From the NCBI RefSeq assembly GCF_017348835.2, contig NZ_CP071375.1: a stretch of DNA of 64,000 nt, one strand, 5' to 3'. Every line of letters starts with the position of its first letter. Positions within the stretch are counted from its first letter, which is position 1. The position numbers and the translations under genes were made by a program. Below are positions 52,372 through 55,743 of this stretch, in pieces. The stretch comes from Escherichia coli (GTDB taxonomy: Bacteria > Pseudomonadota > Gammaproteobacteria > Enterobacterales > Enterobacteriaceae). The notes beneath the pieces were generated by a model. It was not told where the DNA came from, made no database searches, and saw nothing but the letters and a program-made list of their open reading frames with translations.

Positions 52372-53064
52372 TTAATTATGTCTCTTAAGGGTTTGCGACT
52401 GACTGATTAAGACCTTTCCAAAGACCATGAATCGGTGTTCGTTTTCGCTAGTAATTCCCCATTCACGGTAAATCTGGTTATCAGAAATCACCAGCAGTTT
52501 GTCAGGAATCATTTGAAGTCTTTTAACGTATATTTTGTCATCAAAACCAAAGACATATATACCATCACCATCAAACTGATTGATGCTGACATCAACGAAG
52601 ATGAGATCTCCTGGCTCAATGGTTGGACACATACTGTCCCCACGAACGTTGATAACTTTGATGTGATTGGCTGGTCGTCCGCCGAACATTGATACAGCAT
52701 TATCAGTTCTGTATTCGATGGCATGAATCACATCAATGACATCACCGCCCTGGATAAGGCCATTTCCCGCACTGGCACTGATATCCAGCATTTCAATACG
52801 GAACACATCCTTCACCTGCGCAACATCCTCATTATTACTGTTTTTATATACAGTATTACTTTTGTGGGCAGAGGTAAAGAGATCAGCAATATCAACACCT
52901 AAGCTCTTGGCAATATTACTCAGTGTTTGTTCGGTAAATTGTTTTTGCTTACCCGTTTCTAAGCGCGAGATGTTCGCCGCATCTACTCCTATTGCTTCAG
53001 CGAGATCGGCGATTTTCATGTTCTTCGCTTGGCGAAGTTGTCTGACTCGGTTTCCTATGTTCAT
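52372..53064 (-). CDS. cI: CI-type prophage repressor (XRE HTH plus S24 LexA-like peptidase domain)
   Basis: 230 aa; N-terminal HTH (MKIADLAEAIGVDAANISRLETGK); C-terminal GDSM ... K peptidase motif. Confidence 0.85.
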   Translation of the reverse strand: MNIGNRVRQLRQAKNMKIADLAEAIGVDAANISRLETGKQKQFTEQTLSNIAKSLGVDIADLFTSAHKSNTVYKNSNNEDVAQVKDVFRIEMLDISASAGNGLIQGGDVIDVIHAIEYRTDNAVSMFGGRPANHIKVINVRGDSMCPTIEPGDLIFVDVSINQFDGDGIYVFGFDDKIYVKRLQMIPDKLLVISDNQIYREWGITSENEHRFMVFGKVLISQSQTLKRHN

Positions 53065-53161: not shown

Positions 53162-53422
53162 ATGCAATCACCATTACGAAATGTGCGTAAGGCGCATGGT
53201 TTCACTTTGCAGCATGTTGCTGCGGGTGTTCAAGTCAATCCAGCGACGTTGAGTCGTATTGAGAGGCTGGAGCAGATTCCATCTATCGAGCTTGCAGAAC
53301 GTTTAGCCAATTTTTTTAAGGGTGAAGTCAGCGAAATGCAGATTCTTTATCCGGCACGTTTTCAATCTAGCCAAAACCAGAATGGGTTTAAACCACAGGA
53401 ACAGGAGGTGAACCGTGGGTAA
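53162..53422 (+). CDS. cro: Cro-like HTH regulator
   Basis: 86 aa; HTH (GFTLQHVAAGVQVNPATLSRIE); GGAGGG upstream; divergent from cI. Confidence 0.75.
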   Translation: MQSPLRNVRKAHGFTLQHVAAGVQVNPATLSRIERLEQIPSIELAERLANFFKGEVSEMQILYPARFQSSQNQNGFKPQEQEVNRG

Positions 53423-53966
53423 GCATCACTGGAAAGTAGAAAAACAGCCTGAGTGTTACGTGAAAGCTGTCAGAAAAACTATCGCAGCGTTGCCGGGGGG
53501 GTACGCTGAAGCTGCTGACTGGCTGGATGTAACAGAGAACGCATTATTTAACCGCCTTCGTGCCGATGGCGATCAGATTTTCCCGCTGGGATGGGCAATG
53601 ATTTTGCAACGTGCTGGTGGAACTCACTTCATTGCTGACGCTGTGGCGCAGTCTGCAAATGGCGTCTTTGTGTCTCTTCCTGATGTCGAGGATGTGGACA
53701 ACGCCGATATCAACCAACGCCTGCTGGAAGTCATTGAACAGATCGGCAGTTATTCAAAACAGATTCGTTCAGCAATTGAAGACGGTGTAGTGGAACCGCA
53801 TGAGAAGACAGCAATTAACGATGAGCTGTACCTCTCAATTTCGAAGCTGCAGGAGCATGCAGCACTGGTCTACAAAATCTTTTGCGTTTCAGAAAGTAGT
53901 GACGCCCGCGAGTGTGCAGCTCCGGGCGCCGTGGCGTGTCGTGACTGTGGAGAAACTAACGCATGA
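53415..53966 (+). CDS. CII-like / YdaT-like regulatory protein
   Basis: 183 aa; position after cro; overlaps cro end. Confidence 0.55.
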
Positions 53967-54301
53967 ACAGTTTAACAACACACTACCGTCGCTCGCAACT
54001 GATTGCGCTTCCTGTACCGGGTGGAAAAGCGAAGGTGGAGTATTGCTATGCAGTAAATGTACCAGGTGACAGGGAAATTGTAACCCACAGCTTTGCAGAG
54101 TGGGCTGTGGGTGATTTCAACCGGCAGAAGGAGACAGTCCTTTGCGACAAGTTAACCGCTGGTTCAAAGATCACTACGGAGTGCCCGTCAGAGTCATTCG
54201 TTGGGAGCCGGAAACACAACGGGTTATCTACCTCCGTGAAGGCTATGAGCATGAGTGCTTCAGCCCGCTCGAACAGTTTCGTCGTAAATTCAGGGAAATA
54301 G
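53963..54301 (+). CDS. hypothetical protein; 3' half may belong to an alternative frame (possible frameshift or two small coupled genes)
   Basis: 112 aa ORF; a second frame from TTG 54142 to stop 54318 gives protein-like ...[55 protein letters not shown]. Confidence 0.4.
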
Positions 54302-54310
54302 AGGTCGGTC

Positions 54311-55252
54311 ATGAGCACTAAATTAACCGGCTATGTATGGGATGGTTGCGCTGCGTCAGGCATGAAATTATCCAGCGTGGCAATTATGGCCCGCCTGGCT
54401 GATTTCAGTAATGACGAAGGTGTGTGCTGGCCATCAATTGAAACCATTGCCCGTCAGATTGGCGCGGGGATGAGTACCGTCAGAACGGCTATCGCACGGC
54501 TGGAAGCAGAAGGCTGGTTAACGCGTAAGGCGCGTCGCCAGGGTAACCGCAATGCGTCGAATGTTTATCAGCTTAACGTTGCGAAGCTTCAGGCAGCGGC
54601 ATTTTCTCAACTGTCAGATTCTGACCCGTCAAAATCTGACGCATCAAAATCTGACCCGTCAAAATTTGATGCGTCGAAATCTGGCAAAAAAGCGGGTTTT
54701 CACCCGTCAGAATCTGGCGGGGATCCGTCAGTAAAATCAAAACATGATCCGTCAGATAAAAAAACTTCTCGTCCGGACGCTTCGCAACCGGACACGCAGA
54801 AGGCTGAACAGGAGTTTTTAACTCGCCATCCTGATGCGGTTGTATTCAGCCCTAAAAAGCGCCAGTGGGGAACGCAGGATGATTTGACCTGCGCACAGTG
54901 GCTCTGGAAAAAAATCATCGCCCTGTACGAGCAGGCCGCCGAATGTGACGGCGAGGTGGTTCGTCCCAAAGAACCGAACTGGACAGCCTGGGCAAACGAA
55001 ATTCGCCTGATGTGTGTGCAGGATGGTCGTACTCACAAACAAATCTGCGAGATGTACAGCCGCGTCAGCCGCGATCCGTTCTGGTGCCGTAACGTGCTCA
55101 GCCCGTCGAAGCTGCGGGAAAAATGGGATGAGCTTTCCCTGCGCTTATCGCCGTCCGTCAGCACGTACACCGAAAAACGCGAAGACCCGTACTTCAAAGC
55201 CAGTTACGACAACGTGGACTACAGCCAGATCCCGGCAGGATTCAGGGGGTGA
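54311..55252 (+). CDS. replication initiator (O-like; N-terminal winged-helix; C-terminal region possibly YdaU/DUF1376-like) with internal origin iterons
   Basis: 313 aa; central repeat-encoded low-complexity region; position after cII. Confidence 0.65.
   Translation: MSTKLTGYVWDGCAASGMKLSSVAIMARLADFSNDEGVCWPSIETIARQIGAGMSTVRTAIARLEAEGWLTRKARRQGNRNASNVYQLNVAKLQAAAFSQLSDSDPSKSDASKSDPSKFDASKSGKKAGFHPSESGGDPSVKSKHDPSDKKTSRPDASQPDTQKAEQEFLTRHPDAVVFSPKKRQWGTQDDLTCAQWLWKKIIALYEQAAECDGEVVRPKEPNWTAWANEIRLMCVQDGRTHKQICEMYSRVSRDPFWCRNVLSPSKLREKWDELSLRLSPSVSTYTEKREDPYFKASYDNVDYSQIPAGFRG
54620..54762. repeat. putative replication origin: ~7 iteron copies (core CCGTCAG) followed by an A-rich tract
   Basis: tctgacccgtcaaaa / tctgacgcatcaaaa / tctgacccgtcaaaa / tttgatgcgtcgaaa tandem 15-mers plus cacccgtcagaatctgg, gatccgtcagtaaaatc, gatccgtcagataaaaaaa. 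Confidence 0.6.
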
Positions 55253-55254
55253 TC

Positions 55255-55743
55255 ATGAGTCTTTTGAATGACGTTCAGAAATTCATTGAAGCCCATCCGG
55301 GCTGTACTTCCGGAGACATTGCGGATGCTTTTGCAGGTTACTCACGGCAGCGCGTTCTGCAGTCAGCAAGCAAGTTACGTCAGAGTGGGCGTGTGGCTCA
55401 CCGTTGTGAAGGAGATACACACAGACATTTCCCGCGCCTGACTGAGAGAGCGCAGGATCCGGAACCACAACCAGTTCGTGAAACCAGACCTGTGCGCAAT
55501 TTCTATGTCGGCACTAACGACCCGCGGGTGATTTTGTGCCTGACCCGCCAGGCGGAAGAACTGGAGTCCAGGGGCTTATACCGTCGTGCTGCAACGGTGT
55601 GGATGGCGGCATTCCGTGAAAGCCACTCCCAGCAAGAGCGAAACAATTTTCTTGCGCGTCGTGAGCGGTGTTTACGGAAAAGCAGCAAGCGCGCTGTATC
55701 GGGTGAAGAGTGGTATCTGTCAGGGAATTACGTGGGGGCTTAA
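55255..55743 (+). CDS. hypothetical regulator, possibly PerC-family-like
   Basis: 162 aa from MSLLNDVQ; GGGGG 7 nt upstream; basic C-terminus with LYRRAATVWMAAF motif. Confidence 0.4.
   Translation: MSLLNDVQKFIEAHPGCTSGDIADAFAGYSRQRVLQSASKLRQSGRVAHRCEGDTHRHFPRLTERAQDPEPQPVRETRPVRNFYVGTNDPRVILCLTRQAEELESRGLYRRAATVWMAAFRESHSQQERNNFLARRERCLRKSSKRAVSGEEWYLSGNYVGA

Follow-up and report, generated by a model that had tools for sequence, protein, structure and literature searches.

Nested out-of-frame genes are well known in phages; in the spanin genes of phage lambda, Rz1 is embedded out of frame in Rz. Here, we describe a related arrangement at the ymfM locus of a 64,000-nucleotide (nt) stretch of Escherichia coli DNA (NCBI RefSeq assembly GCF_017348835.2, contig NZ_CP071375.1; hereafter, the window), in which a gene for a DUF4222 family protein very probably lies inside the open reading frame (ORF) of ymfM. 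Much is shared with Rz/Rz1: the setting is a lambdoid phage, a small gene with its own start sits (almost) wholly inside another ORF, and both frames are kept in relatives. However, the Rz and Rz1 polypeptides are both sequence-constrained partners, whereas at ymfM only the inner protein, DUF4222, appears to be constrained at the level of its residues, the outer frame being only kept open. The inner gene also extends 20 nt past the outer stop, and the two products have no known functional link. Nested phage genes being already known, the unusual feature of this locus appears to be an outer frame that is selected for openness and not for sequence.

The locus also resembles overprinted viral genes in general, having one old and conserved frame (DUF4222, which is found elsewhere without overlap) and another that is Ser/Thr-rich, unusual in composition, and predicted to be disordered. 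It differs from them in that the tail encoded by the ymfM frame may be selected merely as a translated spacer. A further point of reference is the prophage division inhibitor YmfM/SfiC of e14, with Kil, DicB, and SulA as its functional analogues. The window carries the ymfM orthologue (97% identity), although the published ymfM constructs did not separate the two frames. The evidence we present is comparative and predictive.

Two reading frames between ymfL and the replication gene

The region from ~52.3 to 56.5 kb of the window holds the immunity and replication genes of an e14/SfIV-like lambdoid prophage of E. coli; a 1-kb query from the locus matched NZ_CP027373 at 100% identity and K-12 e14 at 95%. 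The ymfM-frame ORF (the “Y” frame) occupies 53963-54301 on the plus strand, with 112 codons from an ATG start to a TAG stop. It is an orthologue of e14 ymfM (SfiC): the K-12 W3110 protein is identical at 109 of 112 residues, with all three differences in the C-terminal half; the ORF matches phrog_1170 over 112/112 positions (E = 2.9e-70); and it has the same neighbors as e14 ymfM, namely ymfL and the replication gene. Residues 1 to ~60 of YmfM, a folded and conserved part that we call the N-module, are encoded at 53963-54141 (plus strand), free of any overlap. The DUF4222 gene follows at 54142-54321, also on the plus strand and embedded in the ymfM frame from which it is offset by +2 (equivalent to -1). 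It has 59 codons, a TTG start, a TAA stop at 54319-54321, and a Shine-Dalgarno–like AAGGAG at 54128-54133 (plus strand), 8 nt before the TTG. Its last sense codon ends at 54318, giving an overlap of 8 sense nt with the O-like replication gene, whose ATG is at 54311. The dual-frame overlap spans 54142-54298 of the plus strand and comprises DUF4222 codons 1-52 and most of codon 53; in the ymfM frame, the same nucleotides run from the third base of codon 60 to the codon for residue 112 and encode the YmfM tail. These features (the 112–amino acid ORF, the TTG with AGGAG upstream, the end of the second frame at 54318, 8 nt inside the next gene) had been described in the original prediction and proved accurate to the base.

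To place the locus in context, we use 41 diverged loci, comprising the window, 34 loci of different Enterobacterales species, and phage loci, with DUF4222 identity down to 63%. Near-identical sequences form a separate population set of 82 E. coli loci with 44 usable haplotypes; a DUF4222-alignment search of viral contigs returned 80 near-identical loci, which were used for the population analysis only.

The protein-like character that the original prediction saw in the second frame is that of a full-length DUF4222 domain. The 59–amino acid product matches Pfam DUF4222 (PF13973) at E = 8.6e-19 (67.3 bits against a gathering cut-off of 27; model positions 3-52 of 53) and phrog_1343 over 59/59 positions, far more closely than chance would allow, and AlphaFold confidently models it as a small SH3/Tudor-like beta-barrel with a predicted local distance difference test (pLDDT) score of 85. 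The protein is unchanged in 78 of 80 near relatives. Its start codon is NTG in 40/40 loci (ATG in 32, GTG in 7, and TTG in 1), a purine-rich motif lies 6-13 nt upstream of the start in all loci, and the DUF4222 frame is closed by stops 2-10 codons upstream of the start in most loci (2-3 codons in several). DUF4222 is thus very likely an independently initiated, SH3/Tudor-like protein under strong purifying selection.

The outer ORF changes character along its length. AlphaFold gives block-mean pLDDT scores of ~78-88 per ten residues over YmfM residues 11-60, with three strands and a helix at 42-66; for most of residues 71-110, in the tail, the score is below 50. Residues 1-60 match phrog_20047, a stand-alone family of 63 positions, and stand-alone N-module ORFs of 53-65 amino acids occur directly after the cII-like gene in Providencia phage PSTRCR_117lys, Hafnia phage yong2, Citrobacter phage phiNP, and Yersinia phage YeP1. 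An exhaustive N-module profile search of cluster representatives found 110 proteins at E ≤ 0.001. Of these, 84 were kept, those dropped being proteins already examined and giant repeat proteins, and the lengths of the 84 are bimodal, with 37 of 50-69 amino acids and 27 of 100-119. A protein homology search with the N-module returned chiefly truncated or chimeric E. coli variants, with no diversity of use for comparison. The N-module therefore appears, with the same high confidence that we attach to DUF4222 as its genuine overlapping partner, to be a conserved, folded unit of ~60 residues from which the ymfM frame continues for ~50 codons through the DUF4222 gene.

We find that the frame under amino acid selection switches at about 54142, as judged from two ranges of divergence. 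Among population variants, the 179 nt upstream of 54142 carry 15 that are synonymous and 7 that are non-synonymous in the ymfM frame. Of the 13 that fall within the overlap, 12 leave the DUF4222 residue unchanged and alter the residue of the ymfM frame; the sole exception is DUF4222 I53V, which preserves the ymfM-frame stop. The YmfM tail accordingly has about ten polymorphic residues among near relatives. In diverged homologues, third positions of ymfM codons diverge most in the upstream part, while in the overlap divergence peaks (0.43, versus 0.12-0.19 at the other two positions) at third positions of DUF4222 codons, corresponding to second positions in ymfM. Amino acid identity there is 77-78% for DUF4222 and 45-51% for the YmfM tail, and the synonymous sites of DUF4222 vary as much as N-module third positions. 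Purifying selection on residues was found in one of the two overlapping frames, that of DUF4222. The tail thus shows neither conserved sequence nor predicted order, and appears constrained only against stops. The impression, recorded in the original prediction, of a 112–amino acid ORF that reads as a protein for ~57 residues and then declines in quality is borne out by the model scores, by the phrog_20047 match, and by the shift in synonymous to non-synonymous variants from 15:7 to 1:12.

A frameshift mutation or sequencing error that split one gene, or a locus in which only one ORF (DUF4222 alone or ymfM alone) is real, might produce a similar picture. RefSeq omits ymfM, the cited papers use the 112–amino acid ymfM annotation only, and the tail does resemble out-of-frame translation. 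However, the identical two-frame layout is found in 1,870 E. coli records at ≥80% coverage and in the 41 diverged loci, which cover many Enterobacterales genera and phages, and on this ground we exclude the frameshift that had been offered as one option. In addition, the N-module carries a coding signature of its own and has homologues that stand alone, DUF4222 matches a Pfam model and bears the mark of purifying selection, and the avoidance of stops described below would be unexplained if the ymfM frame were untranslated. We consider such explanations highly improbable, and the comparative data already contradict them.

Programmed -1 frameshifting, a second option offered at the outset, would fuse the N-module to DUF4222, much as in lambda G/GT or dnaX. 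As in those systems, there is an offset of -1 between two protein-like frames, and the second of them opens close to where the conserved part of the first ends. Rare database proteins (P0008, P0044, P0058, P0066, and P0077) also cross from the ymfM frame into the DUF4222 frame. Unlike those systems, the ymfM locus lacks a slippery site and a stimulator, and DUF4222 has its own start. No slippery heptamer (X XXY YYZ) near the junction is conserved in the 41 loci, an A-run being present in one locus (L106) only, and RNAalifold predicted 0 pairs, hence no conserved structure, across 20 loci. Programmed recoding is therefore unsupported, given also that DUF4222 has its own ribosome-binding site (RBS), that its start codon is conserved as a start, and that stops close its frame upstream. 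None of the 84 kept N-module representatives has an in-frame Pfam DUF4222 domain, and no single-frame version was found among them. The five frame-crossing proteins are singletons with internal deletions, indels, or mid-gene frame switches, and do not appear to be a conserved single-frame version. Of all the explanations considered, we regard this one as the least credible.

Thus, the locus very probably contains two genuine genes that overlap out of frame by ~160 nt. They are best described as a nested pair rather than a stop-start pair, and appear to reflect neither a frameshift error nor programmed recoding. The remaining option, two small coupled genes, came closest, but the upstream ORF runs on through nearly the whole of the second gene. 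Of the result that would have refuted the original prediction, one half was obtained: the 112–amino acid frame is open from end to end everywhere, but the alternative frame carries a coding signal at the amino acid level.

Stop-avoiding codon choice keeps the ymfM frame open

From the ATG of the N-module across DUF4222, the ymfM frame contains zero stops before its terminal one in 41/41 loci, whereas the third frame has 1-10 stops over the same span. Both overlapping frames are open in every one of the 41 loci, which is beyond chance. The geometry of the overlap allows a precise description of how this is achieved, as a stop in the ymfM frame can only be formed by a DUF4222 codon of the type NTA or NTG followed by a codon beginning with A or G. 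Where the next codon begins with A, Val, Leu, and Ile codons of DUF4222 have a third-position purine in 0/133 cases, compared with 62/196 where it begins with C or T. In the flanking long ORFs of the same loci, Val, Leu, and Ile codons before an A-initial codon end in a purine in 497/1007 cases (49%); given this frequency in the same context, we dropped the idea that stop avoidance stems from a bias in codon pairs generally. One point counts against taking these contrasts at face value: the homologous loci are related and mosaic, contingency tests overstate their independence, and a Fisher P value exaggerates the significance.

More conservative arguments come from a parsimony count and from a codon whose behavior depends on context. 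At DUF4222 codon 16, GTA and GTG are seen only when the next codon begins with C. At codons 4, 18, and 28, which are always at risk, parsimony on a neighbor-joining tree requires at least 13 third-position changes, all of them T/C exchanges. When synonymous codons were resampled with local usage and the DUF4222 protein held fixed, the probability of an open ymfM frame was 0.02-0.17 per sequence, with a mean of 0.07. Distant DUF4222 genes without an N-module upstream have 1-3 stops in the equivalent frame in 4 of 5 cases. We therefore conclude that the ymfM frame is held free of stops by the choice of stop-avoiding synonymous codons within DUF4222, as far as comparison of homologous loci can establish this. 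The locus would offer an apparently clean natural case of a frame selected to stay open while its residues drift freely, and hence a test bed for telling the act of translation from its product.

Two loci from metagenomes, L133 and L134, belong to a distant DUF4222 subfamily in which the frame relation to the O gene is different. There, the N-module ORF again traverses the whole DUF4222 gene, ending 8 nt inside the O gene. The nested arrangement appears to be general beyond the main subfamily.

The ymfM frame is not only open but ends at a particular place. In the window, its stop (TAG, 54299-54301, plus strand) is made from a rare Ile codon of DUF4222, ATA, and the G that follows. The stop lies 157-166 nt after the DUF4222 start in 38/41 loci, in the same alignment column or two codons later. 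Among 40 sequences, the stop column holds ATA in 25, TTA in 8, and GTA in 2, followed by G or A, and in two Pantoea-type loci a GTA two codons further on provides the stop; ATA makes up 9% of Ile codons locally. The ATG of the next gene follows 9 nt after the stop, and in the ymfM frame, in 35/38 loci, and this geometry precedes four unrelated replication-gene N-termini (MSTKLTGYVWD, MSLLMPSRP, MSQIFEIVQS, and MNTLIQLLD). In the window, TAG, spacer, and ATG lie at 54299-54313, the 9-nt spacer AGGTCGGTC (54302-54310, plus strand) containing a ribosome-binding–like AGG. This is a stop-near-start junction, as is the ATGA at 53963-53966, where the TGA of ymfL overlaps the ATG of ymfM. The replication gene ATG shares the ymfM frame, and without the terminal stop translation would yield a fusion of YmfM and the replication protein. 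Across these loci, selection appears to fix where the ymfM frame ends, immediately ahead of the replication gene ATG.

Two further observations concern DUF4222 itself. In a Kosakonia quasisacchari contig (L105, 71-205), a TAG at codon 46 truncates DUF4222 while the ymfM frame still extends uninterrupted to its usual stop; this rare natural variant disrupts the inner gene alone. In addition, some synonymous sites are oddly fixed across 40 loci with no stop-avoidance reason: Glu22 is GAG in 39/40, Pro23 is CCA in 33/40, Val28 is GTT in 38/40, and the codon for Asn/Asp5 ends in C in every one of the 40. In the window, the fixed sites include 54202-54213 (DUF4222 codons 21-24, TGG GAG CCG GAA) together with codons 5 and 28. 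They could reflect a signal at the nucleotide level, or weak selection on a tail motif, G-S-Q-K.

Possible targets of selection on the open frame

Why the frame is kept open is a separate question. The explanation that we favor, tentatively and at a little under an even chance, is that selection acts on translation through the region and not on the tail peptide. The early-right genes would form a stop/start chain, running from the cro-like gene to ymfL, from ymfL to ymfM through the ATGA, and from the ymfM stop over 9 nt to the ATG of O. Ribosomes translating ymfM would be delivered to the start of the replication gene, with DUF4222, and its weak TTG start, lying within the relay. Were the ymfM frame to stop early, expression of the replication gene would be uncoupled or become polar. 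This explanation is favored because N-module ORFs always end on the start of the next non-embedded gene, whether they stand alone, run through DUF4222, or form part of the chain in Yersinia phage YeP1, and because the early-right genes of the window are all joined by stop/start overlaps. The stand-alone N-module ORFs likewise end on the start of the next gene, at ATGA junctions. Taken as a whole, a nested pair combined with a ribosome relay is our best overall explanation, and we put it at an even chance.

The stop-start chains of phage early operons are the nearest parallel to such a relay. The ATGA between ymfL and ymfM, the ymfM stop 9 nt before the O ATG, and the GTGA between O and the next gene all resemble them, as does the plain chain in YeP1. 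The difference is that one link at the ymfM locus skips a whole embedded gene; the coupling here, moreover, is read from sequence.

Several points weigh against this interpretation. The relay is purely our inference. The O gene has its own ribosome-binding–like AGG, and the DUF4222 stop could couple equally well to that gene. Both starts, ATG 53963 and TTG 54142, were likewise assigned from sequence. In YeP1 (L128, 1310-1668), the N-module (53 amino acids), DUF4222, and O form a simple stop-start chain of ATGA junctions, free of long overlaps, showing that such an arrangement is viable; DUF4222 is unannotated in the YeP1 record. Finally, the tail has a hydrophobicity of 21%, compared with 30% in a stop-free synonymous null, and in loci of the type found in phage SfV the ymfM frame continues into Ash/Rha as one ORF. 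These last two findings hint that the tail may matter as a peptide.

They lead to a second explanation, dual coding at the protein level, in which the 50-residue tail is needed in YmfM as a disordered linker, a degradation signal, or an interaction region, and the frame is open for this reason. An open frame in 41/41 loci is what dual coding would produce, the tail is Ser-richer as well as less hydrophobic than the synonymous null, and the clone that causes filamentation expressed the full 112–amino acid ORF. In SfV-type loci, moreover, the N-module is joined through the tail to in-frame Ash (PF10554) and Rha (PF09669) domains, and RefSeq treats the whole as one 381–amino acid protein. However, the tail varies freely, with 12 non-synonymous variants and none synonymous outside the stop-forming codon and with only 45-51% identity among diverged homologues; it is predicted to be disordered; and tail-less N-modules of 53-65 amino acids work in several phages. 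The shift in composition is also modest and could reflect codon preference. We consider dual coding unlikely, though it is the most serious competitor to the relay.

The SfV-type loci deserve description in their own right. Three of them (L011, phage SfV, 1352-2188; L124, 1352-2503; and L132, 3070-4215) lack the usual ymfM-frame stop. Their ymfM-frame ORF runs from the N-module through the DUF4222 overlap into Ash and, in L124 and L132, also Rha. DUF4222 is intact inside this ORF, with a GTG start; RefSeq, which names the 381–amino acid product a “Rha family” protein, omits it. In L011 (2181-2417, SfV orf38) and L124 (2500-2724), the replication gene is directly preceded by another small ORF, which has no Pfam match and shows a pattern reminiscent of DUF4222 (GHVLRVSLVD...QKV.CEPLGRNYRV.MPL..FRS). 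This second ORF may be a divergent DUF4222 that keeps the position just before O.

A third explanation is regulatory: ribosomes on the ymfM frame that cross the DUF4222 RBS could set the level of DUF4222 by masking the site (occlusion) or by melting structure (activation), with the long overlap fixing a ratio between the two proteins. The RBS and start of DUF4222 do lie inside the ymfM frame, the E. coli start codon is a weak TTG, and in the window the minimum-energy fold pairs AAGGAG with UCCUUU beside it. That fold, however, has z = -1.07 and is not significant, and with no structure conserved in 20 loci, we dropped an RNA hairpin hiding the RBS as a candidate. Passage over the start would also suffice for such regulation, leaving a further 150 nt of open frame unexplained. 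We judge this explanation improbable.

Annotation, the SfiC phenotype, and the surrounding region

Databases treat the two genes as alternatives. PHROGs has separate families for each reading unit, namely phrog_1170 (112 amino acids), phrog_20047 (63 amino acids, the N-terminal part), and phrog_1343 (DUF4222), while a search of Pfam and NCBIfam found no model matching the N-module or the 112–amino acid ORF. The RefSeq coding sequence at this position is DUF4222 (WP_001250269.1) with ymfM omitted, and the same is true of NZ_CP027373 and K-12 W3110 (NC_007779). Phage GenBank records annotate either the 112–amino acid ORF or DUF4222, seldom both. Since both frames are maintained, either annotation alone is incomplete, which concerns thousands of prophages in E. 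coli, Shigella, Klebsiella, and other hosts.

The overlap also bears on published work. Plasmid expression of e14 ymfM blocks Z-ring formation, and the SfiC phenotype, known for 35 years, has been assigned to ymfM. The evidence consists of “the open reading frame” cloned in pBAD24 and a deletion; earlier library clones spanned ymfL', ymfM, and ymfN'. The ymfM preprint nowhere mentions a frameshift, stop codon, or truncation, that is, a frame-specific control. By its coordinates, a clone of the 112–amino acid ORF would contain the DUF4222 RBS, start, and codons 1-53, and with them the whole Pfam domain, and a ymfM deletion would remove essentially the entire DUF4222 domain. Because clone and deletion would both affect DUF4222, the published phenotype cannot yet be assigned to one protein. 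It is conceivable, although we think it unlikely, that the SfiC/“YmfM” division block is caused by the embedded DUF4222, or by both products together, and not by the 112–amino acid protein as such. The nested layout would then set the ratio of the two products and link both to firing of the replication gene of the phage. If so, a function could be given to DUF4222, a widely conserved and unstudied family whose genes always immediately precede those of phage replication initiators, and the literature on ymfM would have to be reinterpreted. Our literature search found DUF4222 in passing mentions only, never in a title or abstract, and no paper combining ymfM and ribosome profiling.

The genes around the locus are those of a lambdoid immunity and replication region. 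A cI-like repressor is encoded at 52372-53064 on the minus strand. On the plus strand follow a cro-like gene (53162-53422), ymfL (53415-53966), a cII-like regulator matching Phage_CP76 (PF06892, E = 1.4e-13) and phrog_101, and, beyond ymfM and DUF4222, an O-like replication initiator with an HTH_36 domain (54311-55252; phrog_391) and a PerC-like gene (55249-55743). Scans for an oop-like antisense RNA, a promoter, or a terminator between cII and O gave no excess over shuffled sequences. Inside the O-like gene, at 54614-54721, a 15-nt iteron (TCAAAATCTGACCCG-like) occurs five to six times; by analogy with lambda gene O, these iterons are probably the phage origin, and an Rfam miRNA match on them is spurious. 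The early-right genes of the window meet at an 8-nt cro-like/ymfL overlap (53415-53422), the ymfL/ymfM ATGA, and a GTGA shared by O and the PerC-like gene (55249-55252), and the entire operon looks translationally chained.

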